Assembly (NCBI GenBank): GCA_046153015.1
Contig: JBJXGF010000407.1
Coordinates: 1-58,000, forward strand
Direction of reading: 5' to 3'
Source: Acidimicrobiales bacterium
GTDB taxonomy: Bacteria; Actinomycetota; Acidimicrobiia; Acidimicrobiales; CAIXPF01
DNA length: 58,000 nt
Part shown: piece after piece, positions 5,984 through 58,000 of the stretch
Layout of the letters: every line of letters starts with the position of its first letter
Numbering within the stretch: the first letter of the stretch is position 1
Notes under the pieces: model-generated
Told to the model about the DNA's origin: nothing
Database searches by the model: none
What the model saw: only the letters and a program-made list of their open reading frames with translations
Position numbers and translations under genes: made by a program

Positions 5984-6025
5984 CCCCAACCCGTATCAGG
6001 CCGGCGGCCAGGGCCTCGATGTGAC

Positions 6026-6214: not shown

Positions 6215-6244
6215 GTGAGCGCGCCGGCGGCGCCGCCCGTGGGG

Positions 6245-8127: not shown

Positions 8128-8146
8128 TGGTTCTTCTCCTGTTCGG

Positions 8147-8959: not shown

Positions 8960-8961
8960 GG

Positions 8962-9288: not shown

Positions 9289-9620
9289 CAGCTCGCCGCC
9301 CCCGGTGGCCGCCAGTCGGCCCCGGCCGCCGCGGCTCGGTCCATCGTTGCGCTCTCGAAGATCTCGGAGCTGGTGGTGCGGGCGAACGCGCCGCTAGCCG
9401 CGGACAACGCGGCGATGCGCAGCAGCGCCTCGGAGGTGGGCGCGTCGACCACGACCGCGAAGTCCCACTCGCCCCAGTCGAGCCACAGCCAGCTCTCGAC
9501 CTTGCCGCCGACCGACTCAAACGCCTTCGAGCCTTCGGCCTGGCGGACCGCGTAGCCGTCGGACCGGGCGCCGGCGGCGCCCTGAGCTGTGTACTTCGCG
9601 TGGATCAGGTATCTCGCCAA
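9288..9620 (-). CDS. GYD-domain protein (copy 1 of the operon)
   Basis: ARYLIHAKYTAQGAAGA...GEWDFAVVVDAP is the GYD-like core. I prefer the TTG start at 9620, which has ggaagg 8 nt upstream. An alternative ATG lies at 9680. Confidence 0.65.
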   Translation of the reverse strand: MARYLIHAKYTAQGAAGARSDGYAVRQAEGSKAFESVGGKVESWLWLDWGEWDFAVVVDAPTSEALLRIAALSAASGAFARTTSSEIFESATMDRAAAAGADWRPPGAAS

Positions 9621-9671
9621 GGTTGAATGCCTTCCGCTTGCGTACCGCCGGGCGGCGGTGTCGTGTGTGGT

Positions 9672-9818
9672 ATGGCTCATCGGCTGGTGAAGACGAGCGT
9701 CACCGTGCCGGCCGACGAAGATCTCGAGCGAGCAGCCATGGAGTACGAGGCGGCGTTCGCCGAGTGGGACGAGACGGCTTGGGACCATCTCGCCGGTGAG
9801 GGTCTTGACCCGCGGTGA
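9672..9818 (+). CDS. putative short antitoxin (RHH/MazE-like N-terminus)
   Basis: 48 aa: MAHRLVKTSVTVPADEDLERA... followed by an acidic tail. It sits immediately upstream of, and overlaps, a MazF-like reading frame. The family assignment is weak. Confidence 0.4.
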   Translation: MAHRLVKTSVTVPADEDLERAAMEYEAAFAEWDETAWDHLAGEGLDPR

Positions 9819-10153
9819 GCTCCACGTAGCTGACCTCGAGCCGACTCTCGGTTCGGAGGCTGACAAGTGGCGCCCGGTTGTAGTGGTGGCAACGAGGTGT
9901 CGCTGAGAGCGGTGCAACGGGCAGGTCGCGGCGTCGTCACATCGTGCTGTGCACATCGAACGCGAGCATCCGAGGCCGCATGCACGTCGCGCTGGCGCCC
10001 ACTCGCCTGAACGGCTTGCGCCTGGCGTCGAAGGCGCAAGCCGAACAGGTCCGCTCGATCGATGTAGGCCGGCTGCGCCAGCGGCTGGGCAAGCTGTCCG
10101 CGGCCGATCTGGCGGCGCTCGACGCGGCCTTGCGCTATCACCTCGCGCTCTGA
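9796..10153 (+). pseudogene. MazF/PemK-like toxin gene disrupted by one or two frameshifts
   Basis: The N-terminal MazF-like segment (V/L)TRGELHVADLEPTLGSEADKWRPVVVVA in frame 1 stops at 9904. The C-terminal segment IVLCTSNASIRGRMHVALAPTRLNGLRLASKAQAEQVRSIDVGRLRQRLGKLSAADLAALDAAL is in frame 2. A middle piece, NEVSLRAVQRAGRGVVT, reads best in frame 0. Confidence 0.65.
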
Positions 10154-10167
10154 GCGCGGCGCGTCGC

Positions 10168-10500
10168 TCACGACGTGCCCGGCGCGCGATAGCTCTTCCA
10201 CGGTTGGGCGTTGGCGGCTCGATCGGCGTCTGCGCTCGTCATGGCGATGACGACCTCGGAGCGTTCGACCCCGCCGCTGGCGCCGACCTGTTGGGCCATG
10301 TCGAACGCCGCCTCCAGGCTCGGCACCTCGGCCACGTTGATGGCGTGCCACTCGCCGGTTGCGGTCCAGTTGAAGGCGACGACGGCGCCCCCCAGCGCGG
10401 CGAACTGCTCGGCCGCCCACCGCTCCCGGGCCTCGAAGCCGTCTCGGCGCAAGCTGGCCAGGGCCTGCGGGGTGTACTTCACAAGGTGGACAATGCGCAC
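10168..10500 (-). CDS. GYD-domain protein (third paralog)
   Basis: 110 aa from the GTG at 10500: VRIVHLVKYTPQALASL...ATGEWHAINVAEVPS. The remainder of the 258-aa ORF is Arg-rich artefact. Confidence 0.6.
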   Translation of the reverse strand: MRIVHLVKYTPQALASLRRDGFEARERWAAEQFAALGGAVVAFNWTATGEWHAINVAEVPSLEAAFDMAQQVGASGGVERSEVVIAMTSADADRAANAQPWKSYRAPGTS

Positions 10501-26869: not shown

Positions 26870-28219
26870 TCAGACGGAGCTAGCCGCGCCGAGCTTGATC
26901 GTCTCGAGCACGCTGCGGTCCACCACCGGCTCGCGCTGGCTGCCGGCGACGTACTTACGCGACATCGGCGCCCGCTGGAAGGGATCGGTCAGGCCGATCT
27001 CGTTGCCCCATTCACGAATGGCCGGCATGACCTCGTTGGCGATGAGGCGGATGCTGGTCATGCGGTCCTCCGGCTCCACCGGGCCCTGCACCGAGAAGAA
27101 CACGAAGATCGAGGGGCGGATCACCGAGAGGATGGCCTTGGCCTTCTCGATCACCTGGTCCGGCGTGCCGATGAGGAGCTGGTAGGCGTTCTGGGCCTTC
27201 TCATAGCCCGAGAGCAGCTTGCCCCGAACGTCATCGAAGTTGACCTGCTCCTCGACGTCCTTGCCCTGCGCAGAGCTCATGAGCTTGTCGCGGTTGACGC
27301 CGAGCCAGCTGCCGCCCGGCTGCTTGGCGAGGCGCTGGATCGCGGCGCGCGAGTTGTAGCCCGGGGGCAGGGTGTGCTCGGGGCGGGAGAACGCGTTCTG
27401 CCCGCCGCCGTAGACGAAGCCCCGACCGAGCTCCTGCGCCTTCTCCTCGGTCTCGGCCACGAAGGTCGGGATGAGGTAGCCGAAGTTCTCCGGACCGGCC
27501 TGGTAGCCGAGCTTGGCCGCGGTGTCGGCGTAGATGTCCCACATGTCGCACGTGGCGCCCAGATGGGTGCCCAGGCCGAGGTAGGGGTAGCCGTGCTCGG
27601 CGCACCACACGATGGTCTCGGGCGACAGCACGCCGGGGATCCACATCGGCGGGTGCGGCTTCTGGTACGGCAGCGCCCACGGGTTCACGTGGCGATAGTG
27701 GAAGTGCTTGCCCTCGTACCGCCACGGGCCGGGACGAGTCCACGCCTCGACGATGAAGTCGTGCGCCTCGTTGAACAGCTCCCGGTTGTAGGCCGGGTTG
27801 GCGTTGTTGAAGTACTGCTCCGAGCCGGCGCCGCGCACCCAGCCGGTGACCAGGCGGCCCCGGGAGATGCAGTCGATCGTGGCCAGCTCCTCGGCCATGC
27901 GCAGCGGGTGCTTGATGACCGGCAGCGGGTTGCCGATCAAGACGATACGGGCGCGCTTGGTCTGGCGGGCGAGGATCGCCGCCTCGACGTTCATCACGTT
28001 GCCCATGCAGAACGGGTTGCCGTGATGCTCGTTGAGCGCGATGGCGTCGAAGCCGAGCTCCTCGCAGTAGATCGCCTCGTCGAGGTAGTAATTGAAGTTG
28101 TCGGCGCCGACCTTCTCGTCGAAATAGCTGTTGGAGACGGCGAAGAAGGCCTTGTTCTTGAGGACGACGTCCTCGGGTACCTGGCGGTACGGCCGTTCGG
28201 TGAAATGCGCGATCTGCAT
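26870..28219 (-). CDS. LLM-class (luciferase-like) flavin-dependent oxidoreductase
   Basis: 449 aa from the ATG at 28219, with a TIM-barrel LLM pattern (ALNEHHGNPF..., IVLIGNPLP..., RLVTGWVRG). Confidence 0.8.
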   Translation of the reverse strand: MQIAHFTERPYRQVPEDVVLKNKAFFAVSNSYFDEKVGADNFNYYLDEAIYCEELGFDAIALNEHHGNPFCMGNVMNVEAAILARQTKRARIVLIGNPLPVIKHPLRMAEELATIDCISRGRLVTGWVRGAGSEQYFNNANPAYNRELFNEAHDFIVEAWTRPGPWRYEGKHFHYRHVNPWALPYQKPHPPMWIPGVLSPETIVWCAEHGYPYLGLGTHLGATCDMWDIYADTAAKLGYQAGPENFGYLIPTFVAETEEKAQELGRGFVYGGGQNAFSRPEHTLPPGYNSRAAIQRLAKQPGGSWLGVNRDKLMSSAQGKDVEEQVNFDDVRGKLLSGYEKAQNAYQLLIGTPDQVIEKAKAILSVIRPSIFVFFSVQGPVEPEDRMTSIRLIANEVMPAIREWGNEIGLTDPFQRAPMSRKYVAGSQREPVVDRSVLETIKLGAASSV

Positions 28220-28250
28220 GTGCTGCCTCTGCTCCCTTACGTCCTCGACA

Positions 28251-29063
28251 TCAACCCAGGAACTTCGTGACCGCAGCCACGAACTTGTCGGTGTTCTCGA
28301 TCTCGGGCCGGTGCCCTGCACCTTCGATCTCGGCTACCTCGGCGTGCGGGATGGCCTTACGATACGCCTCGATGCAGCCGTACGGCGTGTAGGTGTCGGC
28401 CGTGCCCCACACGAGCAGCGTCGGCGTGGTGATCCCGCCGAGCAGGTGCGGCAGGCTCGGGTTGAACATGAACGGCTCCCAGCCGATCCGGCTGGTCTCG
28501 GTGCGGGCGTCCTCGAACATCTCGAACTGCTCGGGGGTCATCTCGCCGCCGTAGATCTTCCCGAAGAGGGGGGTCTCCCAGTTGGCGACCGTGGCCCGCA
28601 GATGGGTGCGGATGGTGAGCGCCAGGAAGTCGGTGATCTCGCCCTCGGTCGGGCGCAGGCCCATCGGGCCGGTGAGCACGACCTTGGAGAACACGTCGGG
28701 GTCGGCGGCCAGCATCTCCGCGGCGGCGAACGCGCCGCCGGAGAAGCCCATGCCGACTGCGCCGCTCACGTTCATCGCCCGCAGCATCTGGGCGTAGAAG
28801 CCGCCGAGGTCGCGGTAGCTCATGATCCAGTCGACCTTCGGGGTCTTCCCGTAGGCCGGCTGCAGCGGGATGATGAACTCGTAGTTCTTCGCGAGCTCGT
28901 CGTTCCACGGCATCCAGCCCGGGTAGCCGAGCTCATCGTGGAGCATCAGCAGCGGCTTCCCCGTTCCGCCGCGCAGCACGGTGACATCGACGCCGCCGAC
29001 ATTGACAGTCGTTTCGACAGGTTCGGCCAAGTGCCTCGCCCCCTTCACGTCGTGGCGCCGCAC
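28251..29063 (-). CDS. alpha/beta hydrolase (C-C hydrolase / esterase-like)
   Basis: It has LMLHD, the nucleophile elbow GFSGGA and a C-terminal GAGHRPE. The start is uncertain: GTG at 29063, GTG at 29048, or TTG at 29030 preceded by aaggggg. Confidence 0.8.
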   Translation of the reverse strand: MRRHDVKGARHLAEPVETTVNVGGVDVTVLRGGTGKPLLMLHDELGYPGWMPWNDELAKNYEFIIPLQPAYGKTPKVDWIMSYRDLGGFYAQMLRAMNVSGAVGMGFSGGAFAAAEMLAADPDVFSKVVLTGPMGLRPTEGEITDFLALTIRTHLRATVANWETPLFGKIYGGEMTPEQFEMFEDARTETSRIGWEPFMFNPSLPHLLGGITTPTLLVWGTADTYTPYGCIEAYRKAIPHAEVAEIEGAGHRPEIENTDKFVAAVTKFLG

Positions 29064-29291
29064 CCGGTGGCGGAACGGCCGACCAATGAGGACGGACCGC
29101 AGCCAGCGGGCCGGTCGCCGGACCCCTGGACAGGCGGCCCAACCTAGTCAGGACAGGCGTCCCGCCGCCATTTCCCCATGCGGCGCCGGTCCGGGACTTT
29201 TGTCACAATCTGGCGATCGGCGCGCACCGCACCCGGCTGCGCCCACCGAGCCGAGATAGACCACGACAGACCACCACAGGGGGGATCATCC

Positions 29292-37491: not shown

Positions 37492-37669
37492 GATGGTCCC
37501 CCCTTGCTCACCGGCCCCGCCACGCTAACCCGGCCGCCGCCGAGAGGCCTCGAACACCAAGCTGGGGAACGGCGGGGCACGCTGAGTGATCTGGCCCGCG
37601 GACGTGGATTCTGCAGCGCCGCTGCGTACCCTTGCCCCAGAATTTCACTCTTAGCGGTGGAGGCGCCAC

Positions 37670-38416
37670 ATGGCCCCAATGATCGGCGAGTTGACGCAAG
37701 CGCCTGGTCAGCTCCTCGTGAAAGGCGTCGAGCGGGTGATCGAGCTGCGCTACCCGGCGGCTCAGGACTTCGTCGAGCGCGCCCGGGCGCGACAGCCGCA
37801 AGCGACCCCCGCACAGATCGGCGCACTCGCTATCGCGCGGGCTGAGAAGGAGCTGATGACGCTGGGGGCCGCGTCCGGCGGCTCTGCCGCGGTGCCCGGC
37901 GCCGGCACCGCGGTGGCCATAGGGGCCATCGGCGCCGACCTCATTGCGAGCGGGGCCCGTCTCACCGAGATGACCATGCGAATCGCCGTGGCCTATGAGC
38001 ACCCGATGGAGGATCTCGAGGCGCGGCGAGCGGTCGTGCTCACGATCATGCTCGGCGGCGTGGGCGGTCAGAAGGTCGTGAACAAGGCCGCCGCAGAGCT
38101 GGGAAAGGGCCTGTCGAGCCAGGCGCTCAAGCACATCAGCGGCCAACAGCTCAGGGTGATCAATCGGTTCCTCGGGCGCACGATCATCACCAAATACGGC
38201 ACCAAGCGGGGGGTCATCTCGCTCGGTCGAGCGCTCCCCTTCGGCGTCGGCGCGGTGATCGGCGCGGGAGGCAACTACCTCGTCGCCCGCAGCACCGGCC
38301 GCTATGCCATCCGCTTCTTCGACGAGGGCGACTGGAGCGCCGACCCGGGCGAGGACGTGATCGACGTCGACGAGGCCGGCCTCGACGACGAGTCGGAAAG
38401 CCGCGACGCCGACTGA
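37670..38416 (+). CDS. hypothetical protein, possibly EcsC-like
   Basis: 248 aa with Gly/Ala-rich hydrophobic segments and an acidic tail (DVDEAGLDDESESRDAD). The EcsC assignment is from memory and is weak. Confidence 0.6.
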   Translation: MAPMIGELTQAPGQLLVKGVERVIELRYPAAQDFVERARARQPQATPAQIGALAIARAEKELMTLGAASGGSAAVPGAGTAVAIGAIGADLIASGARLTEMTMRIAVAYEHPMEDLEARRAVVLTIMLGGVGGQKVVNKAAAELGKGLSSQALKHISGQQLRVINRFLGRTIITKYGTKRGVISLGRALPFGVGAVIGAGGNYLVARSTGRYAIRFFDEGDWSADPGEDVIDVDEAGLDDESESRDAD

Positions 38417-38524
38417 AGCAAGACGGGCCTGCCACGCGCCAGGGTCGATGGTCCGGTCCCTCCTCAACATCGGGTACCTACCCTCCGCGCCGCCCTTGGC
38501 GCTGCGCTGCTCGTACCCTCGCGG

Positions 38525-40633
38525 GTGGCCGAGGCGAACATCTCGGGCTTGTTCGCGTCCAACGACGCGGCGGACATCCTCGTCGACACGTTCCGCTCCG
38601 ACGAGGCGTTGTTCGCCTATGTAGTGACCGACATCGTGGGCGGCGAGGTCTGCATCGTCGACGCAACGGTGGAGGACCCGGCTGCGGCGAGCTGCGACGA
38701 TCCGGCCTGGGGATCACCCAATCGGGTCTTCGGCATCGGCACGCTGCACACGCTGCTGGAGGGGCCGGGATTGGCGCCGGGCACCTGGAAGCTCCTGGGG
38801 ACGATGCCCAACGGCGCGCCCGGCGGGCGGGTGCTCAGCGCCCCCTTCACGGTCGTGCCGTGCGGCGCGACGTGCAACTACGAGTTGGGCGCAGCCGCGG
38901 CGGAGGCGTTCAAGGCGCCGGCTCGGCAGTTGGCCGCCGGCACCAAGGCGGCCTGCATCGGCTTCGGGGTCGCCGACTGGGTGGGCGGCGGGGTCGACGC
39001 CAGCGAGTACTGGGGTATGGCCAAGACGCTGCGGGGGACGGTCGACGACACCGCTGGCGCGGTGTCGGCCAGCGCCAGCCGGTCCCCGGGCGGTGGGACC
39101 GTGCTCGCCGTCGGCGCCGCGGCCTTCGGCCCGGTGCTGCTCGGTCTGCCGATGTCCTACAACGAGGCCGTCATCGACATCGGCAAGCAGCTTCTGTGCG
39201 CGCAGAACGAGATGTTCACCGACATCGTCAACGACCCGCCCCGGGCGGACTACACGGTGTTGCACGAACCTCGACCCCGGCCGATCGCGGAGACCTACAA
39301 CGCCCTCGGCAACGAATTCGTCGATTCCCTCGAGGCCACCCTGGCCGTCGACCGCGGGATGTTGATCACCTACGAGCGCTACCTGGGCGCCGTGTTGGCC
39401 GGCAATGCCGAATGGACGCGTCGCCAGGCGCAGCACCTGCACACCTTGAGCCTCGCCGCCGGCGACGCGATGCGGGCCTCGGCCGCCAAGCTGGCCGAGG
39501 TGTCCGCCGCGCTCGGGGCCAACCCCGAACCGCTCGCCCCCATGCTGACCGAGGCCGAGCTCGTGGAGCTCAAGGCCCTCGCCAACCGGGTCGCGACGGC
39601 TGGGCTGCTGCCCGAGGAGCTGGCATCGTTCGCCGCCGCCGGCGCCACAGAGGCCGAACGCGACCGGGTCGTGGCCGAGATCGTGGCCCTCGGGTCGACG
39701 CCGGACGCGGACTTCCCCGTCGGCCGCTCCCTCGTCGACATCGTCGACGCGCTGGCGGCAGAGCTGCGCTCGGCGTCCTACGAGTTCGAGCGTTTCGGCC
39801 GGTTCGCGTTCGCCGGCCCCGGCGCCGCCGCCGCGGTCAACCGGGCGCCGGTGGCCGGCCCCGACAACGTCACGACGTCGGAAGACGCCGACGTGGCGGT
39901 GTCCGTCCTCGACAACGACGTCGACCCCGACGGCGACGCCCTCACCCTGCTGGCCGTTTCACCCCCCACGCGCGGCAGCGCCGCCCTGCTCGGCAATCGG
40001 GTGATCTACACCCCGGCGCCCGACTCCTCCGGCGCCGATTCGTTCACCTACACGATCTCGGATGGGAACGGGCAGACGGCGACCGCGGCGGTGCTCGTCA
40101 CGGTCACGCCGCTGCCCGATACACCCGTTGCCCGCGACGACGACGTCCTCGGCAGCGTGGGTGTGGCCTCGCTGGTCGACGTGCTGGCCAACGACGCCGA
40201 CGCCGATGGGGAGCCGCTCGTCGTCACCGTGCTGACCCCGCCGGCCAGCGGGCTGCTGGAACCGGTCAGCAACGGCGTCTTCCGCTTCACCCCGGCCCGT
40301 CGGGGGGCAGCGAGCTTCACCTACCTGGTGACCGACCCGACCGGCCGCACCGCCACTGCGACCGTGCGCATCGCGTCGGGCAACACGGCGCCGGTGGCCC
40401 TCGACGACGTCGCGGCGACCGATGAGGACATCGCGGTCACGGTGGACGTCCTGGCCAACGACGCCGACGCCGACGGCGACCCGTTGACGATCAGCATCAC
40501 GTCCGCGAGCCGCGGGCTCCCCGTCGTCAACGGTGACCGCATCCTCTATGTCCCGGCGCCCGACTACGCCGGTGCCGACAGCTTCACCTATCAGGTCTCC
40601 GACGGTGTGGGACGTCGGCCCCGGCCACGGTGA
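38525..40633 (+). CDS. giant repeat protein, N-terminal fragment: unknown ~435-aa region plus three cadherin-like repeats (frameshifted gene)
   Basis: The repeats carry (V/L)xNDxDxDGDxL and FTYxxSDG motifs. The third repeat is cut mid-domain at ...FTYQVSDGVG and continues in the next ORF's frame. Confidence 0.75.
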   Translation: MAEANISGLFASNDAADILVDTFRSDEALFAYVVTDIVGGEVCIVDATVEDPAAASCDDPAWGSPNRVFGIGTLHTLLEGPGLAPGTWKLLGTMPNGAPGGRVLSAPFTVVPCGATCNYELGAAAAEAFKAPARQLAAGTKAACIGFGVADWVGGGVDASEYWGMAKTLRGTVDDTAGAVSASASRSPGGGTVLAVGAAAFGPVLLGLPMSYNEAVIDIGKQLLCAQNEMFTDIVNDPPRADYTVLHEPRPRPIAETYNALGNEFVDSLEATLAVDRGMLITYERYLGAVLAGNAEWTRRQAQHLHTLSLAAGDAMRASAAKLAEVSAALGANPEPLAPMLTEAELVELKALANRVATAGLLPEELASFAAAGATEAERDRVVAEIVALGSTPDADFPVGRSLVDIVDALAAELRSASYEFERFGRFAFAGPGAAAAVNRAPVAGPDNVTTSEDADVAVSVLDNDVDPDGDALTLLAVSPPTRGSAALLGNRVIYTPAPDSSGADSFTYTISDGNGQTATAAVLVTVTPLPDTPVARDDDVLGSVGVASLVDVLANDADADGEPLVVTVLTPPASGLLEPVSNGVFRFTPARRGAASFTYLVTDPTGRTATATVRIASGNTAPVALDDVAATDEDIAVTVDVLANDADADGDPLTISITSASRGLPVVNGDRILYVPAPDYAGADSFTYQVSDGVGRRPRPR

Positions 40634-43600
40634 GCCTCACCGTCCGAGCGGTGAACGACGCGCCGCAGATCCTCGCGCTCAACCGGACGGCCATCATCGG
40701 GCGGCCGATCCCGCTGGCGGTTTCCGTGACCGACCCCGACACCGCGGCCGAGCGGCTCACGGTCGGCGCCACAGCGGCCCATGGCTCGGTGTCGGGCGCG
40801 TACCCTGAGCTCACCTACACGCCGGGGCCGGGCTTTCGCGGTGACGACACGGTGACGGTGACCGCGTCCGACGGGCTCGTCACCTCCAGCGCCGAGGTCG
40901 TCGTCCGCGTGGTGACCGTGATCGACAACGGCGTCGTCCAGCTCGGCATCAACCCCACCGGTGAGCTCAACGTCGACAGCGGTGATCTCCTGCCCTCCCT
41001 CAACGGGACGAGCGCTGTCGGGCTGCGCTACCTGCCGACCACCGCCGAGGCCACCGCGCCCGGCTGCCTGTGCGAAGGCTGGGGCGTGGCCGACGCCACG
41101 AGCGGCGTGACCGGCTACGCCAATCAGTCAAAAGGCACGGCCAACATCACGCCGGTGTCGATGACGGTGACCTCCTCGACGGCGACTGTCGTGGTCCGCG
41201 TCGGCGACACGTTCCTCGTGACCCACCGCTACCGGCCGTCGACCGCCACCCCGAACCTCTACGAGGACGAGGTGACCATCGAGAACATCTCCGCCGCCCC
41301 GACCGAGGTCCGCTACCGGCGGGTGATGGACTGGGACGTCGAACCCACCGCCTTCACTGAGTACGTGACGATCGTCAAGGGCGACTCGCCGGAGCTGGTC
41401 TTCACCTCCGACGACGGCTTCGCCACCTCCGACCCGCTCGGCGGTCCGAGCTCGATCCGCTTCACCGGCGCCGCCGCCGACGACGGCCCCATCGACCACG
41501 GCGCGCTGTTCGATTTCGCCTTCGGCGCCCTGGCCCCGGGCGCGTCCCGGACCTTCGTGACGTTCTACGGCGCGGCAGGCAACGAGGCGGCCGCCCTGGC
41601 CGCGCTGCGGGCGGTGGGGGCGGAGGCCTACTCGCTCGGCCAGCCGTCCACGCCCGGCGGGGCCGACCTGGGCGAGCCGAACACGTTCGTGTTCGCCTTC
41701 GGGCGGGTCGGCGGCACGCCGGTGTTCAACCGGCCGCCGGTGGCCAACGCCGGCGCCGCCACCACGCCAGCCGGTGCGCCGACGCCGGTGCTGCTGAGCG
41801 GCAGCGACCCCGACGGCGACCCGCTCACGTTCGCGGTGGCGTCCGGCCCGGCGCACGGCGTCCTGTCGGGCACGGCGCCGGCGCTCGTCTACACCCCCGA
41901 CGCGGGCTTCTCGGGTGAGGACACGTTCACCTTCACCGCCTTCGACGGCGAGGTGCTGTCCGCGCCGGCCACCGTGCGTCTCACGGTCCGCCCCGCCGCC
42001 CCGCCGAACCGGCCGCCCGTCCTGGGCGACGATGCGTACACCGTGGCGGAGGACGCCGCCCTGATGGTTCCCGCCCCGGGCGTGTTAACCAACGACTCCG
42101 ACCCCGACGGCGATGCGCTCGCGATCACCGTCTGGGGCGCGGCCGCCCACGGCACGGTCGTCGGCGGCCCCGGCGGGTCGGTCACCTACAACCCGGCGGC
42201 GGACTTCCACGGCGCCGATGCCTTCACCTACACGGCGTCGGACGGTCATGGCCACACGGCCACCGCGACCGTGCGGGTCACGGTGACCCCGGTCAACGAC
42301 CCGCCGCAGGTCACGGCCAGCATCCCGGCCTCGGGGGTCGAGGGCACGCCCATCGCGGTGTCGGCGGCCGGCGCCGACGCGGACGCAGACGCGCTCACGT
42401 TCACCTGGTCCGTCTCCGGCGGCCCGTGCACGCTCACCCCGGTCACGGGGACGGCCGCGAGCCTGGTGTGCACCGACGACGCCGCCGCCGCGCTGGTGAC
42501 CGTCACGGCCTCCGACGGCCACGCGGCCACCCCGCTGACCCGGGAGGTGACCACCCGGAACGCGCCGCCGTCGGTCGCCGTGCGGCCGATCGCCGCTGGG
42601 GGGACCGCCCCGGCGCCGGTGACGGTGGAGGCGGTGGTCTCCGACCCCGCGCGGCCGACGTGCTGCGCTGTTCCATCGACTTCGGCGACGGCACGCCGGC
42701 CCACTCGGTGCTCCCGGCCGGGGGCGTCTGCTCCGCAACGGCGACGGTGCTGGCCGAGGGCCACCCTGACGGTCACCGACGACGACGGCGGTGTGGCCAG
42801 CGGGTTCGGCGACTTCCTCCTGCGTCAGGCCAACCGGCCGCCGACGGTGACGTTGAGCGGGCCGGCCAGCGGCGCCGAAGGCGCACCGCTGGCGGTGAGC
42901 GCGACCGTGGCCGACCTCGACCGTGATTTCGTGGCCGTCTTGTGGACGATGACCGCGAGCGGTCTCGACGCCGGCGGCGTCTGCACGTTGTCGGCCACGA
43001 ACGGTCTCTCGACGAGCGTCCGTTGCACCGACGACGCGACGGTCACGCTGACGGCGTTGGCGGGCGACGGGCAGTCGTCGACGAGCGCCACCACCACGAT
43101 CCTGGTGGGCGACGCGGTCCCGTCGATCGCGTTGGCGCCCGTGGCGATCTCCGGGCCGGCGCCGGCCGAGGTCACCGTCACGGCCGGCGTGAGCGACCCC
43201 GGCGCGAATGACGTGCTGTTCTGCCGGTTCGCCTTCAGCGACGGCGCCGTCCGGATCGCAGACGCGGCCTCCGGCGTCTGCCGGGCGACCGTTCCCGGCC
43301 TCGGCGCCGGCAGCTTCCGGGTCACGGTCACCGTGACCGACGACGACCACGAGTCAGCGACGGCGTCGAGCGAGTTCACCGTGGCGGCCCCGCCGCCGCC
43401 GTCGTCGTGCACGACCGTCAGCGGCGAGGCGTCCCTGGCGGGCAAGCCCTGGCGCCTCGAGGTGGAGAAGGGCCGTGGCGGCGCCCGTCGTGTGGAGGTG
43501 TACGGCCCCAGGCGCCAGCACTGGCACGGCCGGGTCGCCTCGACCACCGGGGTGGACACGACCGCCACCCTGACCACCGCGCCGTCGAAAGAGGGGACGG

Positions 43601-43827
43601 TCCTGACCATCGTCATCGAGGACCGTCACAAGGCCGACCGCTTCTCGGTCAAGGTCACGCGGCGGGGCCGGGTCCTGGCGTCGACCGACGGCTTGCAGAA
43701 GACGTCCCGATCGACCCTGCGGGTCGATCTGTCAGCGTGCCATGCCTGCCCCTGGGAGCCCCACGAGGGCCACGAGGGGCACGAGGGCCACGACGGGCAC
43801 GAGCACTGGGCGCGGCCGCACGACTGA
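40630..43827 (+). CDS. giant repeat protein, C-terminal fragment: cadherin-like repeats, unknown ~270-aa central domain, two PKD-like double modules, His-rich tail
   Basis: The frame is open upstream to about 40609, giving GTSAPATVSLTVRAVNDAPQ, which completes the repeat broken in the previous ORF. It has further NDSDPDGDAL/FTYTASDG repeats, two ~180-aa duplicated modules, and ends HEGHEGHEGHDGHEH. Confidence 0.75.
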   Translation: MSLTVRAVNDAPQILALNRTAIIGRPIPLAVSVTDPDTAAERLTVGATAAHGSVSGAYPELTYTPGPGFRGDDTVTVTASDGLVTSSAEVVVRVVTVIDNGVVQLGINPTGELNVDSGDLLPSLNGTSAVGLRYLPTTAEATAPGCLCEGWGVADATSGVTGYANQSKGTANITPVSMTVTSSTATVVVRVGDTFLVTHRYRPSTATPNLYEDEVTIENISAAPTEVRYRRVMDWDVEPTAFTEYVTIVKGDSPELVFTSDDGFATSDPLGGPSSIRFTGAAADDGPIDHGALFDFAFGALAPGASRTFVTFYGAAGNEAAALAALRAVGAEAYSLGQPSTPGGADLGEPNTFVFAFGRVGGTPVFNRPPVANAGAATTPAGAPTPVLLSGSDPDGDPLTFAVASGPAHGVLSGTAPALVYTPDAGFSGEDTFTFTAFDGEVLSAPATVRLTVRPAAPPNRPPVLGDDAYTVAEDAALMVPAPGVLTNDSDPDGDALAITVWGAAAHGTVVGGPGGSVTYNPAADFHGADAFTYTASDGHGHTATATVRVTVTPVNDPPQVTASIPASGVEGTPIAVSAAGADADADALTFTWSVSGGPCTLTPVTGTAASLVCTDDAAAALVTVTASDGHAATPLTREVTTRNAPPSVAVRPIAAGGTAPAPVTVEAVVSDPARPTCCAVPSTSATARRPTRCSRPGASAPQRRRCWPRATLTVTDDDGGVASGFGDFLLRQANRPPTVTLSGPASGAEGAPLAVSATVADLDRDFVAVLWTMTASGLDAGGVCTLSATNGLSTSVRCTDDATVTLTALAGDGQSSTSATTTILVGDAVPSIALAPVAISGPAPAEVTVTAGVSDPGANDVLFCRFAFSDGAVRIADAASGVCRATVPGLGAGSFRVTVTVTDDDHESATASSEFTVAAPPPPSSCTTVSGEASLAGKPWRLEVEKGRGGARRVEVYGPRRQHWHGRVASTTGVDTTATLTTAPSKEGTVLTIVIEDRHKADRFSVKVTRRGRVLASTDGLQKTSRSTLRVDLSACHACPWEPHEGHEGHEGHDGHEHWARPHD
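43762..43806 (+). repeat. 5 x 9-bp coding tandem repeat (His-Glu/Asp-Gly tail)
   Basis: The units cacgagggc, cacgagggg, cacgagggc, cacgacggg and cacgagcac encode HEG HEG HEG HDG HEH. Confidence 0.9.
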
Positions 43828-43860
43828 GGCACACCCGCCCACAACCTGAGCTGGCGATCT

Positions 43861-43899
43861 GCTCGGGGCGCTCGCACCATCGGTGCGGGCGCCCCGAGC
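43861..43899. terminator. bidirectional intrinsic-terminator-like hairpin between convergent genes
   Basis: gctcggggcgctcgcacc (43861-43878) pairs with ggtgcgggcgccccgagc (43882-43899) at 17 of 18 positions around a 3-nt loop. Confidence 0.6.
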
Positions 43900-43938
43900 C
43901 GCGTCCGGCCGCCGGGTCAGGTCAGCGCTGCGCCTGGC

Positions 43939-45579
43939 TCACCAGGCGGCCACGCCCCCGGTGAGGGCGCGAGGGTCGCTGGCGCCGGCCAGCACGCCGT
44001 CCGCGCCGACCGTGATGCAGTGCGCGTGGCCCCAGTTCCAGCGGGCCGGCGACACCACCGCGTGGCCCCGGGCGGCGAGGCCGGGCGCCCAGGCCGCCGG
44101 GGCGTGGGGCTCCACGACCACCTGGGCCCGGTCGGGCTCGTCCCAGGTGTCGAACAGGTTGGAGTCGGGCGCGGCGAGGACCCAGCGGGGCCCCCACACC
44201 GCGTCGCCCGGTGAGCCGCCGCGGCCGAGCAGCCGGGCGAGCAGCTGCAGCACGATCTGGGGCTGGGAATCGGCGCCCATCGTGCCGAGCACGCTGTGCA
44301 GCGCGCCGTCGGCCTCGGTCACGACGGCGGGGGCGAGCGTGTGCGGCGGCCTCCGGCCGGGCCCGTACTCCGCCGGGTGGCCGGGCGTCAGCGAGAAGCC
44401 CATGCCCCGGTTCTGCAGGAACACCCCGACCGAGGGCACCGCCACATCAGTGCCGAAGCCGGATGCGTTGGACTGGATGAGCGCCACGCCCCGGCGCTCC
44501 TCGTCGACCGCGCAGAGAAAGATCGTGCCGCCGCCCCGGTACGTGTCGCCGAGCACGGCGGCCCGCTCCGGTGAGATCGCCGCCAGCCGGCGTCCGAGCC
44601 GCTCGGGGGCGAGCAGCGCCGCGCCGTCGGCGTGCTCGTGCAGCGCCGCCGGCCGGTCGAACGCGGCGTGGCGGGCGGCCTCGATCAGGAGGTGGGGCCA
44701 CGCCGGGTCGTCCTCGGTGTCGGGCAGGTCGAGCCGTTCGGCCAGCCAGGCGCCGGCCAGGCTGAGATACCCCTGCGAGTTGGGCGGCGGCGTCCACACC
44801 CGCCGGCCCCACACCTCGAGCCCCAGCGGCGCGACCCACTCGGCCTGGGAGCGGGCGAGGTCGGCCTCGCAATACTCGCCCCCGCCCAGCTCGATCAGGC
44901 CCTCGCCGAATTCGCCCCGGTAGAACCCGTCCCGCCCCTGCGCCGCGACGACCTGGAGGCAGCGGGCCACGCCCGGCCGGCGCACCAGCCCGCCGGGGCG
45001 GGGCCGGCCCAGCTCGCCCGGTTCGGCCAGGCCTGCGGCGGCCGCCGCGAGCAGCGGCGAGGCGGGGAACCCGTGACGGGCGGCGTCGAGCGCGGGGGCC
45101 AGCACATCCTCCAGCGCCAGGCGCCCGAAGCGGGTGTGGAGCTCCACCCACCCGTCGACGCAGCCCGGGATCGTCGCCGAGCGGATGTCGCCCTTGAACG
45201 GCATGGCCGTGCGGCCCTCGGCCCGCAGCCGGTCGGGGTCGGCGCCCGAACCGGCCCGGCCCGACGCGTTGAGGCACCAAGGCTCGGCGCCGCCGGGCTC
45301 GGCGACCAGCGCGAACAGGTCGCCTCCCATGCCGCACATGTGCGGCGTGGTGACCGCCAGCAACGCGCTGGCCGCCACCGCGGCGTCGACCGCCGAGCCG
45401 CCGGCCCGCAGCATCGCCGCCCCCGCCGAGGAGGCGAGGTGGTCGACGCTGCACACCATGCCGCGCCGGGCCCACACGGTGGCGTGGGGCGAGGGCGCAG
45501 GCACGGGCGCCATCATGGCCCCCGTGAGCGCAACGAGCACGAGCGCCGGCGGGGCGCTGCTCGACCGGCTGGCCGGCAT
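43939..45579 (-). CDS. ggt: gamma-glutamyltransferase-family Ntn hydrolase
   Basis: It has a signal-like N-terminus and MCGMGGDLFALV, typical of the GGT family, plus a processing-site region (GGGTIFLCAVD). The length fits the family. The start may instead be an internal Met at 45516 or 45513. Confidence 0.8.
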   Translation of the reverse strand: MPASRSSSAPPALVLVALTGAMMAPVPAPSPHATVWARRGMVCSVDHLASSAGAAMLRAGGSAVDAAVAASALLAVTTPHMCGMGGDLFALVAEPGGAEPWCLNASGRAGSGADPDRLRAEGRTAMPFKGDIRSATIPGCVDGWVELHTRFGRLALEDVLAPALDAARHGFPASPLLAAAAAGLAEPGELGRPRPGGLVRRPGVARCLQVVAAQGRDGFYRGEFGEGLIELGGGEYCEADLARSQAEWVAPLGLEVWGRRVWTPPPNSQGYLSLAGAWLAERLDLPDTEDDPAWPHLLIEAARHAAFDRPAALHEHADGAALLAPERLGRRLAAISPERAAVLGDTYRGGGTIFLCAVDEERRGVALIQSNASGFGTDVAVPSVGVFLQNRGMGFSLTPGHPAEYGPGRRPPHTLAPAVVTEADGALHSVLGTMGADSQPQIVLQLLARLLGRGGSPGDAVWGPRWVLAAPDSNLFDTWDEPDRAQVVVEPHAPAAWAPGLAARGHAVVSPARWNWGHAHCITVGADGVLAGASDPRALTGGVAAW

Positions 45580-46930
45580 CGTGGGCGCCGCCCACGTGCT
45601 GACCGAGCCCGACGTGACCGCCGGCTACACCCGAGACTGGACCGGCCGGTTCCGGGGCGCCACGCCCGCCGTGGTGCGCCCCGCCGACACCGAGCAGACC
45701 GCGGCGGTGGTGGCCGCCTGCGCCGCGGCCGGCGCGCCGCTCGTGCCCCAGGGCGGCAACACCGGCCTGGTGGGTGGCGGCGTGCCCCTGGCCGGCGAGC
45801 TGGTGCTGAGCCTGCGCCGGCTCACCCGGCTGGACCCCGTCGACCGTCTGGCCTCCCAGGTCACCGCCGGGGCCGGGGTCACGATCGCCGCCCTGCAGGC
45901 CCACGCCTCCGCCGCCGGCCTGGCCTATGGCGTGGACCTCGGCGCCCGCGACAGCGCCACGCTCGGCGGCACGATCGCCACGAACGCCGGGGGGCTGCAG
46001 CTCCTGCGCTACGGCGGAACCCGGGAGCAGCTCGTCGGCTGCGAGGCGGTGCTGGCCGACGGGTCGATCGTGCGCCACCTCGACGGGCTCCTGAAGGACA
46101 ACACCGGCTACGACCTGGGCAAGCTGCTGTGCGGCAGCGAGGGCACGCTGGGGGTGGTGACCGCGGCGAGGGTGAGGCTCCACCCCGCCTACGCCGAGCG
46201 GGTGGCGGCGCTGCTCGCCTTCGCCTCCGTGGAGGCGGCGGTGGCGGCCGTGATGGGCGTGAAGCACCGGCTCGAGTCGCTCGAGGCGGCCGAGCTGTTC
46301 TTCGGCGACGGCCTGGCCCTGGTGTGCGACGCCCTCGGTCTCCCCGCGCCGTTCCCGCAACGCCATCCCGCCTACGTGCTGCTCCAGTGCGCCGCTCATC
46401 ACGACCCGACCGACGAGCTGGCCGCCGCCCTCGGCGAGCTCGACGGCCTGGTCGACGCGGCGGTCGCCGCCGACACGGCCCGGCGCCGGGAGCTGTGGCG
46501 CTACCGGGAAGGCCACACCGAGGCCATCAACTCGCTCGGCGCGCCGCACAAGCTCGACGTGACGATCCCCGCGGCGCGCATCGCCGAGTTCGTGGCCGCC
46601 GCCCCCGCCGTGGTCGCCGCGGCGGCGCCGGCCGCCCGCACGTGGCTCTTCGGCCACGCCGCCGACGGCAACGTCCACGTGAACGTGACCGGCGTGGCCC
46701 CCGAGGACGACACGGTCGACGACGTGGTGCTGCGCTGCGCCGCCTCCTTCGGCGGGTCGATCAGCGCGGAGCACGGCATCGGCACCGCCAAGAAGCCGTG
46801 GCTGCACCTCAACCGGAGCCCGGCCGAGCTGGCCGCGTTCGGCGCCATCAAACGGGCGCTCGACCCCGCCGGGGTCCTCAACCCGAACGTGCTCCTGCCC
46901 GCCGCCGGGACAGGATCGGAGGCCCCGTGA
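45515..46930 (+). CDS. FAD-linked oxidase (GlcD / D-2-hydroxyacid dehydrogenase-like)
   Basis: It has an FAD_binding_4-type region (VVRPADTEQTAAVVAACAAAGAPLVPQGGNTGLVGG) and a C-terminal SAEHGIG. The ATG is at 45515. Confidence 0.85.
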   Translation: MAPVSATSTSAGGALLDRLAGIVGAAHVLTEPDVTAGYTRDWTGRFRGATPAVVRPADTEQTAAVVAACAAAGAPLVPQGGNTGLVGGGVPLAGELVLSLRRLTRLDPVDRLASQVTAGAGVTIAALQAHASAAGLAYGVDLGARDSATLGGTIATNAGGLQLLRYGGTREQLVGCEAVLADGSIVRHLDGLLKDNTGYDLGKLLCGSEGTLGVVTAARVRLHPAYAERVAALLAFASVEAAVAAVMGVKHRLESLEAAELFFGDGLALVCDALGLPAPFPQRHPAYVLLQCAAHHDPTDELAAALGELDGLVDAAVAADTARRRELWRYREGHTEAINSLGAPHKLDVTIPAARIAEFVAAAPAVVAAAAPAARTWLFGHAADGNVHVNVTGVAPEDDTVDDVVLRCAASFGGSISAEHGIGTAKKPWLHLNRSPAELAAFGAIKRALDPAGVLNPNVLLPAAGTGSEAP

Positions 46931-55229: not shown

Positions 55230-56024
55230 GTGAGGTCGGTCTTCCAGACCCGGCCCGTCCAGCGTCGCAGCCCGTCCGGGCTGGCGGTGTGGGAAGACGG
55301 CCCGGCCGAGGCGGCGGTGGCGGTGCTGGTGCACGGCACGATGGACCGCGCCCGGAGCTTCGCCAAGACGATTCGCCGCCTGCCCCACGTCCGGCTGGTG
55401 AGCTACGACCGGCGCGGCTACGGGGCCTCGCTGGAGGTGGCCCCCGCCGGCTTCGACCGCCAGGCGGCCGACCTGCTCGAGGTGCTCGACGGGCGCCCGG
55501 GCGTGTTGGTGGGCCACAGCTTCGGCGGCGCACTGGCGCTCGCCGCGGCGGCGCGGGCGCCCGGGCAGGTGGGCGCCGTCGCCGCGTTCGAGGCCCCGAG
55601 GCCGATCCGGCCCGGGCAGGCCGCGGGCGCCGTGCCGCCGCCCGCCGACGACGACCCCGCAGCCGCCGCCGAGCGGTTCCTGCGCCGCCTGTTCGGCGAC
55701 CGCATCTGGGAGCGCCTGCCGGCCGAGGTGCGAGAGGAGCGCCGCCGGGAGGGCGCCGCCATGCGGGCCGACCGCGCCGCGCTGTCGGGCGTGGGGGCGC
55801 CCGGCGCGCGCTACGACGACGGCGCGCTCACGATGCCGGTGCTGGCCGGGCGGGGCAGCGCATCCGAGGAGCGGCTGCGCCGAGCCGCCGACGACCTCGC
55901 CGCCGCGGCTGCGAAGGGCGAGCTGTTCGTGTGCGAGGGGGCCGCCCACGCCGCCCACCTGACCCACCCCGACTGCTACGCCGCGTTCGTGGCCACTGCG
56001 CTCCAGCGCGGCGGCTGCGGCTAG
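55230..56024 (+). CDS. alpha/beta hydrolase
   Basis: It has VLVHG, the nucleophile elbow GHSFGG and a C-terminal AAHAAH region. Confidence 0.8.
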   Translation: MRSVFQTRPVQRRSPSGLAVWEDGPAEAAVAVLVHGTMDRARSFAKTIRRLPHVRLVSYDRRGYGASLEVAPAGFDRQAADLLEVLDGRPGVLVGHSFGGALALAAAARAPGQVGAVAAFEAPRPIRPGQAAGAVPPPADDDPAAAAERFLRRLFGDRIWERLPAEVREERRREGAAMRADRAALSGVGAPGARYDDGALTMPVLAGRGSASEERLRRAADDLAAAAAKGELFVCEGAAHAAHLTHPDCYAAFVATALQRGGCG

Positions 56025-56094
56025 CCTCGCGCCGCCAGCCGGCGAAGCCGGCCGCACGCGCCAGCGGGGCGGCGGCGGGGCGGCGAGGAGGTTC

Positions 56095-57369
56095 ATGCGC
56101 ACGCGCGACGCTCGATTGTTCTACGGCTGGATCGTGGCCCTCGCCGCTTTCGCCATCCTGGCCGTGTCGTACGGGCTCACGTTCAGCTACGGCGTGTTCA
56201 TCAAGAGCCTCAGCGCCGACCTCGGCTGGAGCAAGGCGGAGGTGACGCTGCCGTACTCGATCTACATTCTCGTGTACGGCCTGCTCGGCAGCGTGGCCGG
56301 CTGGGCGACCGACCGGTCGGGGCCCCGCGCGGTGATCGCCGTCGGCGCGGTGTTCCTCGGCGTGGGGTTCGCGCTGGTGGGCCTCACCCACCACCTGTGG
56401 CAGCTCTACCTCTCCCTCGGCGTCGTCGCCGCCATCGGCATGAGCGCGGCGTGGGTGCCCTGCAACGCCACCGTGGTCCGGTGGTTCCGGCTCAAGCGGG
56501 GCCGAGCGCTGTCGATCAGCTCCACCGGGGGGAGCTTCGGCAACGTGCTCGCCCCGATCGTGGGCGCCGCGCTGGTCGCCTCGATCGGTTGGCGCTGGAG
56601 CTTCGCCGCGCTCGGCGCGTTCGCCACCGTGGTGATGCTGGCGTTGTCCCGTCTGATGGTGCGTGACCCGGAGCGGATGGGCCTCACCGTCGACGGCGCG
56701 CCGCCGGCCCCGCCGGGCGCCCCCGCCCCCGCGCCCGAGGCGAGCATGACCATGGCCGAGGCCCGCCGCACCCGGTCGTTCTGGGTGATCTTCGCCCTGT
56801 TCAGCGTGGTCTGGCTGGTGGTCTTCGTCCCCCAGATCCACCTGCCCGGCTTCGTGGAGGATCTCGGCTTCTCGAAGTTCGCCGGGGCGGCGGCAGTCTC
56901 CTGCGTGGGCCTCGGCGGCATGGCCGGGCGGCTCACGATGGGCGGCCTGTCCGATCGGCTGGGCCGCCTGCCGTGCCTCGGGGCGCTCCTCGGGCTGCAG
57001 ACCGTCTCGTTCGTGTCGTTCGCGCTCACCGGCTCGCTCGGGGTGCTCTATCCCACTGCGGTGGCCTTCGGCTTCGCCTACGGCGGCGGGGTCGTGATCT
57101 TCCCGGCGCTGGTCGGCGACTACTTCGGGCGGGAGCACGTCGGCGCCATCGTGGGGATCATCTTCGCCGGGGCCACGCCCCCCGGCGCGTTCGCGCCGTT
57201 CCTCGCCGGCTGGCTCTACGACGTGACCGGCGGGTATCGGATCTCGTTCGTGCTCGGCGTGGTGGTGAGCGTGGCCGCGCTGGCGCTGCTGGCGCTGCTG
57301 CGGGCCTCCGCGCCCGCCGGCGCCGCGCGGGACGCGCCGAGGGCCGCGGCCGCCCCCACCAGCGCGTGA
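56095..57369 (+). CDS. MFS transporter (oxalate/formate antiporter-like)
   Basis: It has about 12 hydrophobic helices and an N-terminal FYGWIVALAAF...YGVFI pattern typical of OFA-type MFS. Confidence 0.85.
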   Translation: MRTRDARLFYGWIVALAAFAILAVSYGLTFSYGVFIKSLSADLGWSKAEVTLPYSIYILVYGLLGSVAGWATDRSGPRAVIAVGAVFLGVGFALVGLTHHLWQLYLSLGVVAAIGMSAAWVPCNATVVRWFRLKRGRALSISSTGGSFGNVLAPIVGAALVASIGWRWSFAALGAFATVVMLALSRLMVRDPERMGLTVDGAPPAPPGAPAPAPEASMTMAEARRTRSFWVIFALFSVVWLVVFVPQIHLPGFVEDLGFSKFAGAAAVSCVGLGGMAGRLTMGGLSDRLGRLPCLGALLGLQTVSFVSFALTGSLGVLYPTAVAFGFAYGGGVVIFPALVGDYFGREHVGAIVGIIFAGATPPGAFAPFLAGWLYDVTGGYRISFVLGVVVSVAALALLALLRASAPAGAARDAPRAAAAPTSA

Positions 57370-57422
57370 GCGCCGCGTCCGCGACCGGCCTTGACCGGTC
57401 TGGTGGGAGGAATACTGGTTGG

Positions 57423-57896
57423 ATGAACACGGTGACGTTCCGGGCGCCGTTCGCTCAGCTCTGGGGGGTTCTCACCTGCCTCTACCTCGCCATCGGCGCG
57501 GCCGTGGCCACCGGGGGAACGGGGCCCGACAACCCCAAGGGCACCCCCGCGCAGAACGCGATGCTGACCGCCATGGCCCTCCTGCAGCTCACCGCGGCGG
57601 CGCGCTTCGCGCTGCTCGGCGTGCGCCTCGAGGGCGGCGAGGTCCGGGTCCGCAACCTGCTGCGCACCCGGCGGGTCCCCGCCGGCGAGGTGGAGCGGGT
57701 GGAGCTGGCCGGCCCGGGCCGGCTCGGCGAGGCCTACGGACGGCTCGTGCTGCGCGACGGCTCGACCATCCGCCTCGACGTGGTGAACCCGGTGCTGGCC
57801 CACCGTTACACGAGCGGCCGGCTCGCCGAACGGCACGGCCCGCACCTCGTGGCCGAGCTCGAGCAAGCGCTGGCCGAGGCCAGGGTGCGAGGATGA
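57423..57896 (+). CDS. hypothetical membrane protein with a C-terminal PH-like segment
   Basis: 157 aa with two N-terminal hydrophobic helices followed by EVRVRNLLRTRRVPAGEVERVEL...LVLRDGSTIRLD. The ATG is at 57423. Confidence 0.55.
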   Translation: MNTVTFRAPFAQLWGVLTCLYLAIGAAVATGGTGPDNPKGTPAQNAMLTAMALLQLTAAARFALLGVRLEGGEVRVRNLLRTRRVPAGEVERVELAGPGRLGEAYGRLVLRDGSTIRLDVVNPVLAHRYTSGRLAERHGPHLVAELEQALAEARVRG

Positions 57897-57900
57897 GCCG

Positions 57901-57999
57901 GTGACCGACCAGCCGGTGACCTTCAGCGCGTCCGGCCCACCCGAGACCGTGCTCGACCCGGAGCCGGCGGCCGCGCTCGAGGCGTTGGCCGCCGCCGCC
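57901..57999 (+). CDS. 5' end of an unidentified ORF running off the window
   Basis: A GTG at 57901 lies 5 nt after the previous stop, and the frame is open to the window end. It is too short to classify. Confidence 0.25.
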   Translation, partial: MTDQPVTFSASGPPETVLDPEPAAALEALAAAA

Positions 58000-58000
58000 G

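Follow-up and report, generated by a model that had tools for sequence, protein, structure and literature searches.

Large repeat-rich surface proteins are common, and they are often frame-broken in metagenome assemblies. In cadherin-like repeats of such proteins, motifs of the NDxDxDGDxL type bind Ca2+, and in Gram-positive adhesins the ligand-binding regions sit at the distal tip. The gene reported here lies at 38448–43827 on the forward strand of contig JBJXGF010000407.1 (GenBank assembly GCA_046153015.1), within the whole stretch of 58,000 nucleotides that was analysed (positions 1 to 58,000, hereafter the window; GC ~72%), and it is one gene for a secreted, adhesin-like repeat protein of an uncultured Acidimicrobiales bacterium. 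It spans 5.4 kb and, after four frame repairs, encodes 1,793 amino acids (aa) with no internal stop; an initial annotation of this DNA, made from the letters alone, had recognised the giant size but put it too low, at ~1,770 aa if repaired. The protein resembles the tandem-95/Big_9/Cadherin_5 proteins (NF012211, PF17963, PF17892) in carrying six units above the cut-offs within a multi-domain secreted protein, and these scores place it in the tandem-95/Big_9 repeat class; in this assembly its reading frame is broken. The best explanation of the whole locus, to which we assign a probability of about 0.6, is one large secreted adhesin-like surface protein whose reading frame is broken here.

As recorded, the gene is divided between two open reading frames (ORFs), ORF1 at 38525–40633 (702 aa) and ORF2 at 40630–43827 (1,065 aa), both as described in the initial annotation. 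A cadherin-like repeat is severed at FTYQVSDGVG and continues one frame over as TSAPATVSLTVRAVNDAPQ; the C-terminal end of ORF1 reads ...FTYQVSDGVGRRPRPR up to its stop codon, and the adjacent frame reads ...GTSAPATVSLTVRAVNDAPQ. The split into ORF1 and ORF2 is due to a base missing within this repeat, R3 (lesion b in Table 1). After repair, R3 matches positions 1–89 of the 89 positions of the Big_9 profile with 83.7 bits, compared with positions 1–79 for the unrepaired tail of ORF1, and becomes equal in length to the repeats R1 and R6. The two ORFs belong to one gene because a repeat unit spans their junction and its repair completes the Big_9 match, and because homologues that share the head, the central domain and the PKD-like double modules are each encoded by one unbroken ORF of 1,672–1,988 aa. 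P0128 (1,672 aa, an intact ORF in locus L001) and P0142 (1,803 aa) follow the same order of head, repeats, central domain and double modules, and P0163 (1,988 aa), also a single intact ORF, shares the head, the double modules and the C-terminal domain. Intact homologues that start with the head domain range from 1,472 to 2,174 aa. A signal peptide is absent from both ORF1 and ORF2, and the start of ORF2 falls inside a beta-sandwich repeat. The initial claims that the two ORFs are one gene, and that the severed repeat resumes in the next frame, were thus both confirmed.

The initial annotation described a single frame break, but four repairs were needed, at ~38474, 40611, 42649 and 42738–42763 (lesions a to d). 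At the 5′ end, ATG 38448 opens frame 0, which runs for 58 codons to a stop at 38622; the hydrophobic segment of the signal peptide with its AxA motif (VPTLRAALGAALLVPSRVAEA/NIS...) is in frame 2, in which there is no ATG, GTG or TTG between the stop at 38414–38416 and GTG 38525. One base added at the GGG of lesion a links ATG 38448 to the remainder of the signal peptide, and at the equivalent point the homologue P0123 reads ...ATPAHA/NISNVIPAD. Lesion a is probable, and it is the least certain of the four. Lesions c and d both lie in the first PKD-like module, B1. Lesion c was mapped by DNA alignment of B1 with its paralogous copy B2 together with three-frame translation. At lesion d there are four residues fewer than in B2, P0142 and P0163, and the lesion is explained either by deletion of 11 nt or by a loop shorter by 12 nt together with one additional base. 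Lesions c and d together place 36 codons of B1 (ADVLRCSIDFGDGTPAHSVLPAGGVCSATATVLAEG) in frame 0 between stretches in frame 1. Once repaired, B1 matches PKD_4 and PKD again, as well as B2 does, and the unrepaired B1 gives no such match. The four lesions, mapped against homologues and internal paralogous copies, amount to the frame disruption typical of a pseudogene, and from the sequence as recorded only a 58-aa peptide, or two cytoplasmic fragments (702 and 1,065 aa), could be made, none of them with a signal peptide.

The repaired protein matches Pfam Big_9 (PF17963) with 365 bits (cut-off 23.6) and NCBIfam tandem-95 (NF012211) with 308.3 bits (cut-off 90), each in six stretches, and the best Big_9 stretch, aa 1188–1279, covers profile positions 1–89 of 89. 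The six cadherin-like repeats carry the NDxDxDGDxL and FTYxxSDG motifs for which they had been picked out initially. The five-part layout proposed at that stage is retained, except that the repeats do not all precede the central domain: four stand before it and two after it. The two duplicated PKD-like double modules were also recovered as described. The whole protein scores 33.9 bits with PKD (PF00801), where the cut-off is 23.5 and the best stretch is aa 1568–1644, and single B modules reach 24 bits with PKD_4 (PF18911), below the cut-off of 27; on these profile scores the B modules are PKD-like and not clear PKD members. The A/B module pair is also present in P0163, P0142, P0128, P0125 and P0168. 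The features of the gene, its lesions and the gene upstream are collected in Table 1.

Table 1. Coordinates in the window of the features of the repaired gene, its four frame lesions and the upstream gene.
Feature	Position (nt)	Strand	Residues (aa)	Remarks
Start codon and signal peptide	38448–38533	+	1–29	MVRSLLNIG / VPTLRAALGAALLVPSRVAE(A), split over two frames
Lesion a	38472–38475	+		Probably one base missing at GGG 38472–38474; frame 0 to frame 2
Head domain	38534–39838	+	30–464	Exhaustive HMMER family, AlphaFold2 model
Repeats R1–R4	39839–40917	+	465–824	tandem-95/Big_9/Cadherin_5; Pfam, NCBIfam
R1	39839–40108	+
R2	40109–40378	+
R3	40379–40650	+
Lesion b	40609–40612	+		One base missing at GGG run 40609–40611 within R3; frame 2 to frame 1
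R4	40651–40917	+
Central domain	40918–41727	+	825–1094	Unannotated; AlphaFold2 and Foldseek
Repeats R5–R6	41728–42291	+	1095–1282	tandem-95/Big_9
R5	41728–42003	+
R6	42004–42291	+
Double modules A1-B1-A2-B2	42292–43389	+	1283–1648	Two duplicated; B modules PKD-like
A1	42292–42558	+
B1	42559–42828	+
Lesion c	42649–42650	+		One G missing: GACCCC-GCGCGG here, GACCCCGGCGCG in B2; frame 1 to frame 0
Lesion d	42738–42763	+		Return to frame 1; B1 11 nt shorter than B2 (gaps of 7 and 4 nt)
A2	42829–43110	+
B2	43111–43389	+
C-terminal beta-rich domain and Cys/His-rich tail	43390–43827	+	1649–1793	Stop TGA 43825–43827
EcsC-like upstream gene	37670–38416	+		Ends 32 nt before ATG 38448

The C-terminal domain with its His-rich tail is present as first described, with a length of ~145 aa rather than ~110 aa. 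Among the proteins compared, P0163 alone has a C-terminus that resembles this domain. The tail CHACPWEPHEGHEGHEGHDGHEHWARPHD (43738–43824), in which a short HEG repeat occurs, is rich in His, Cys and Glu and was not seen in P0163; its composition suggests that it probably binds metal. The extreme C-terminus, ...LRVDLSACHACPWEPHEGHEGHEGHDGHEHWARPHD, has no LPXTG motif, hydrophobic stretch or charged tail, as the initial reading of an end without an anchor had it. Identity of the C-terminus with post-COAP-1 (NF041523) was rejected, as no match was obtained at E ≤ 1 and pairwise BLASTP was not significant; the relative P0129 scores 58.3 bits with the same model. Assignment of the protein to the BapA/Bap/LapF or RTX adhesins was likewise rejected, with 48.3 bits for NF045619 against a cut-off of 180 and no HemolysinCabind match.

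The head and the central domain, both regarded as unknown in the initial annotation, indeed have no sequence match in Pfam, NCBIfam or PDB, but they are not orphans. An exhaustive HMMER search with the head found 187 representative proteins at E ≤ 0.001 (42 of them at E ≤ 1e-30), 30–37% identical. A word-indexed homologue search, with the head alone and then with a 15-sequence profile, returned the query itself and one weak match, and the family could be assembled only by the exhaustive search. The head begins 25–85 residues from the N-terminus, and within ~130 residues among the matches listed that cover the domain. The proteins of the head family are mostly intact, secreted and 1,200–2,500 aa long, some of them with the present architecture, and the modules that follow the head in relatives include PKD, Big_9, IgGFc_binding and others. 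None of 15 family members gave a meaningful Pfam match, and the head profile found no PDB sequence. No protein more than ~37% identical to the head was found in the collections searched, a search for related loci with the single protein gave no relative in species-representative genomes or JGI metagenomes, and a plasmid search with the head found nothing. The cluster records assign no taxonomy to members of the head family. The family member P0125 (1,472 aa, with an LAxTG-type end) occupies 6001–10419 of locus L002, between ParB/YAcAr genes and a TrwC relaxase gene; therefore at least one relative resides on a conjugative or integrative element.

Alignments of the head family contain six conserved Cys and the motifs DPPDP, ERYxGA and RVxxxGFTxxE. 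The N-terminal region that could not be assigned initially, described as ~435 aa of beta-rich and then helical sequence, is 435 aa long and was modelled by AlphaFold2 (pLDDT 81) as an Ig-like sandwich (head residues 1–115; ~38525–38869 on the DNA) followed by a helical bundle (residues 120–435; ~38882–39829). A Foldseek search against PDB gave a weak match to the Ig-like part alone (E 0.02) and nothing for the helical bundle. Inside the bundle, residues 156–209 (38990–39150) form a Gly/Ala/Val-rich hydrophobic stretch, GGGTVLAVGAAAFGPVLLGLP, which is the sole long part left unmodelled by AlphaFold2 and whose character is conserved across the head family; it could be a buried or membrane-active loop. 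The family members P0123, P0125, P0154 and P0159 terminate in an LPxTG or LAxTG motif with a hydrophobic stretch and a charged tail. Because several members end in such sortase signals, the head is expected at the distal tip of a wall-anchored stalk and, by analogy with Gram-positive adhesins, would be the ligand-binding part there.

The central domain is widespread and, in most of its occurrences, forms a stand-alone secreted protein with exchangeable anchors. At least 797 clusters, 55–66% identical over more than 90% of its length and mostly without any Pfam domain, span Cyanobacteria, Actinomycetota and Binatia, and more distant copies, 37–48% identical, are found on Rhodobacteraceae and Bacillus plasmids. 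In its typical form the domain is part of a protein of 330–500 aa that consists of a signal peptide, the domain and a variable tail; the tails include PEP-CTERM (Okeania, Komarekiella), a membrane anchor (Agromyces, Leucobacter) and RTX repeats. The plasmid copies include a VPLPA-CTERM protein in Rhodobacteraceae and hypothetical proteins in Bacillus thuringiensis. In their genomic surroundings (L003–L006), stand-alone genes are single genes among housekeeping genes. Across 51 sequences there are 36 invariant columns, many of them charged, including E56, Y136-R-R, W142-D, D196-H and D202. A PDB profile search gave nothing at E ≤ 10. The AlphaFold2 model of the domain has a pLDDT of 96.9 and a pTM of 0.93, and Foldseek matched it to the N-terminal supersandwich found in GH94 phosphorylases and cyclic-glucan synthases and to galactose-mutarotase-like folds, at TM-scores of 0.48–0.58 over ~280 columns, E-values down to 4e-5, a probability of 1.00 and 8–15% identity. 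Membership of the GH94 phosphorylases or galactose mutarotases was rejected, the likeness being at the level of the fold, to a non-catalytic N-terminal domain, with no (alpha/alpha)6 domain. Because the model resembles the galactose-mutarotase-like supersandwich of GH94 phosphorylases, the central domain probably binds glycan, and from the fold and the conservation taken together it is possibly catalytic. Tentatively, and with somewhat less than even confidence, we suggest an undescribed secreted family, alone with exchangeable anchors or embedded in giant adhesin-like proteins, in which E56, YRR136–138, WD142–143, DH196–197 and D202 on the mutarotase-like supersandwich would form the glycan-binding or catalytic site of a new class of lectins or carbohydrate-active enzymes.

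How, then, are the broken frames to be explained? If ORF1 and ORF2 were two genuine genes for cadherin-like proteins of 702 and 1,065 aa, it would be understandable that NCBI released the ORF1 product, which is identical to [quoted passage not shown], and that the GTG of ORF2 overlaps the stop of ORF1. The boundary would then fall inside a Big_9 repeat, at position 79 of the 89 in the profile, neither product would have a signal peptide, an out-of-frame PKD-like module would remain inside ORF2, and the homologues are all single ORFs. Moreover, ORF2 as read from GTG 40630 has no entry in the protein collection, where no protein contains the central domain of this contig (the best match is 65% identical); given that the ORF1 product is present there, this suggests that ORF2 was not released as a protein by the depositor's pipeline. 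Among the recorded gene positions, the product of ORF1 gave no exact match. The two-gene reading was rejected on the severed repeat, the lack of signal peptides and the single-ORF homologues, and we find it hardly credible. With one gene accepted, we consider a real, recent inactivation of an accessory gene slightly likelier than consensus errors. The frame plot, in which a codon-score model trained on 13 long ORFs of the window called the best of six frames along it, detected no other within-gene frame switch in the ~55 other coding runs of the window, each of which is contained in a single ORF whose coding signal begins at or after a start codon. In ten flanking genes one uninterrupted match covers the Pfam model over practically its full length (for example CoA_transf_3 over positions 1–366 of 366 and G_glu_transpept over 2–509 of 512). 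Four lesions in 5.4 kb therefore stand against none detected in ~52 kb, and because they are confined to one gene they exceed what a uniform indel error rate would produce; such a rate was rejected. Real inactivation is further supported by lesion d, which is larger than one base, and by lesions c and d forming a compensated pair, singly disruptive and jointly frame-restoring; compensated indel pairs of this kind have been documented, with read support, as real "frameshift scars" in Mycobacterium tuberculosis (PMC8339072).

Several observations weigh against the preferred reading of a frame-broken, inactivated adhesin gene. On the side of function, the genomic context of the head homologues and of the stand-alone central-domain genes offers no functional clue, the fold similarity of the central domain is moderate (TM ~0.5) and to a non-catalytic domain, and neither the head nor the central domain has a characterised homologue. 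On the side of the lesions, a rare CTG start at 38429 in frame 2 could make lesion a unnecessary. In a leave-one-out decay test on columns at least 90% conserved, which compared the window with intact homologues, deviations were found at 1 of 88 columns in the central domain (0–13 in the homologues) and at 2 of 36 in the head (0–4), and the 1,793 codons contain no stop after repair; signs of relaxed constraint, whether loss of conserved residues or stop codons, were thus not found in the repaired protein. Three of the lesions are alike, each being the loss of one G from a short G run, a pattern that consensus errors leave as well. The DNA comes from a metagenome-assembled genome, and in metagenome bins a consensus built from mixed strains easily goes wrong in variable surface genes. 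The lack of decay, the likeness of the three lesions and the metagenomic source would fit a gene that is intact in the organism, with the secreted 1,793-aa protein made in full and the lesions arising as assembly or consensus errors, for example through polishing across mixed strains or low coverage in a hypervariable surface gene, and so would the ease with which single-base repairs bring back full-length domain matches. Errors of that origin should not be limited to one gene and spare the other ~52 kb, the G runs are merely 2–3 bases long, lesion d spans ~11 nt, and the internal repeats, 60–77% identical at the DNA level, are too divergent for repeat-driven misassembly; collapse of repeats was rejected on the same ground. 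We regard consensus errors as a serious possibility that falls short of an even chance. Much less probable, and in our view unlikely, is a regulated or reversible switch operated by slippage at G runs, with the c/d pair as a frameshift scar. The pair corresponds to the definition of a scar (PMC8339072), the sequence downstream of it is well conserved, and homopolymer-tract indels are reported to be a frequent adaptive route in M. tuberculosis, itself one of the Actinomycetota. Against a switch, there is no long homopolymer or simple-sequence tract at the lesion sites, where GGG occurs twice and a lone G follows CCCC once; tracts of 2–3 bases are far too short for classical phase variation. Known phase-variable tracts have ~7 bases or more. 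The c/d pair also spans ~100 nt and wrecks the core of a domain, when reported scars are mostly shorter than 10 nt, and a switch does not need two or three simultaneous "off" lesions. Programmed frameshifting was rejected, as there are four different sites and no slippery heptamer was seen when these were read.

The surroundings of the gene were compared with 80 loci around homologues of the adjacent gamma-glutamyltransferase (L007–L086; 54–65% identity, mostly Acidimicrobiales). The neighbouring FAD oxidase gene is kept in 30 of them, and the head domain, the central domain and the EcsC-like gene are found in none (0/80); by this comparison the locus is accessory, as it had been judged initially. 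The gene directly upstream is adjacent as stated at the outset, although its match to EcsC (PF12787; E 3.9e-6, 27.1 bits) remains below the curated cut-off of 30.4 bits. No EcsC-like gene stands beside the homologues of L001 and L002 either, and these comparisons revealed no conserved link. Downstream, a divergent pair at 43939–46930, gamma-glutamyltransferase (−) and FAD-linked oxidase (+), is the one kept in those 30 of the 80 loci, which come from Acidimicrobiia and other Actinomycetota. With 65% as the best identity of the gamma-glutamyltransferase, there is no close relative of this genome among the species-representative genomes, and neither a close ortholog of the gene nor a second assembly of a close relative was found in the collections searched. 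A promoter and terminator scan of 37500–44100 gave nothing above shuffles. Genes on the opposite strand were rejected, as the long minus-strand ORFs in 38.4–43.8 kb have no sustained coding signal. Elsewhere in the window, 26870–29147 has a lower GC content (0.655–0.676) and contains luciferase-like monooxygenase and alpha/beta-hydrolase genes, and 56000–58000 has a strongly negative AT skew that coincides with an MFS transporter gene; both regions look ordinary.

From these features we propose the following picture of the intact protein. It would be exported by its Sec signal peptide, and the six tandem-95/Big_9 cadherin-like repeats would form, with the four PKD-like modules, a stalk that displays two binding modules, the N-terminal head and the embedded beta-supersandwich. 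The end would be formed by the small beta-rich domain and the His-rich tail, without the sortase signal found in some relatives. A surface location is proposed because the repaired gene has a signal peptide and relatives end in LPxTG/LAxTG signals, and because the tails of stand-alone central-domain proteins are of the PEP-CTERM, VPLPA-CTERM, RTX or membrane-anchor type. The gene is of an ordinary type and, as a gene, of little importance, having no close ortholog and no conserved context. Its value lies in the delimitation of two conserved domain families, the head and the central supersandwich, which are unnamed in Pfam and NCBIfam and ready for curation, and the central domain would be worth assaying for glycan binding or enzyme activity. 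The locus is also a test case for the calling of lesions, with four in one gene, none elsewhere in the window and no decay of the protein; it could help to separate recent gene loss, or frameshift "scarring" outside Mycobacterium, from consensus errors due to strain mixture.

Compared with the tandem-95 class, the present protein differs in that the repeats make up only about one third of it; the head, the supersandwich, the double modules and the C-terminus lie outside those models. The metagenomic "PKD repeat proteins" P0128, P0142 and P0163 share the same head at 30–37% identity and the double modules, and P0128 and P0142 have in addition the same central domain (62% identity to that in L001). 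They differ in that the identity is at the level of a family and not of orthologs, in their genomic contexts, and in the other payloads that PKD repeat proteins carry (IgGFc_binding, post-COAP-1 ends, sortase signals). With GH94 phosphorylases, cyclic beta-1,2-glucan synthases and mutarotases (PDB 8bou, 4zlf, 8rf0, 3dcd) the central domain has the same overall fold in common; unlike in the GH94 family, no catalytic (alpha/alpha)6 domain follows here, and the domain is extracellular, often alone with a sorting tail. The lesions resemble the frameshift "wounds" and "scars" of M. tuberculosis (Gupta and Alland 2021, PMC8339072) in comprising single-base indels and a compensated pair, whereas those scars are mostly shorter than 10 nt, compared with ~100 nt here, where the tracts are very short and known from one assembly. 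Finally, in contrast to the sortase-anchored Gram-positive adhesins, this protein has a His-rich tail in place of a sorting signal, while it shares with them the signal peptide, the distal head and a stalk of Ig-like repeats.

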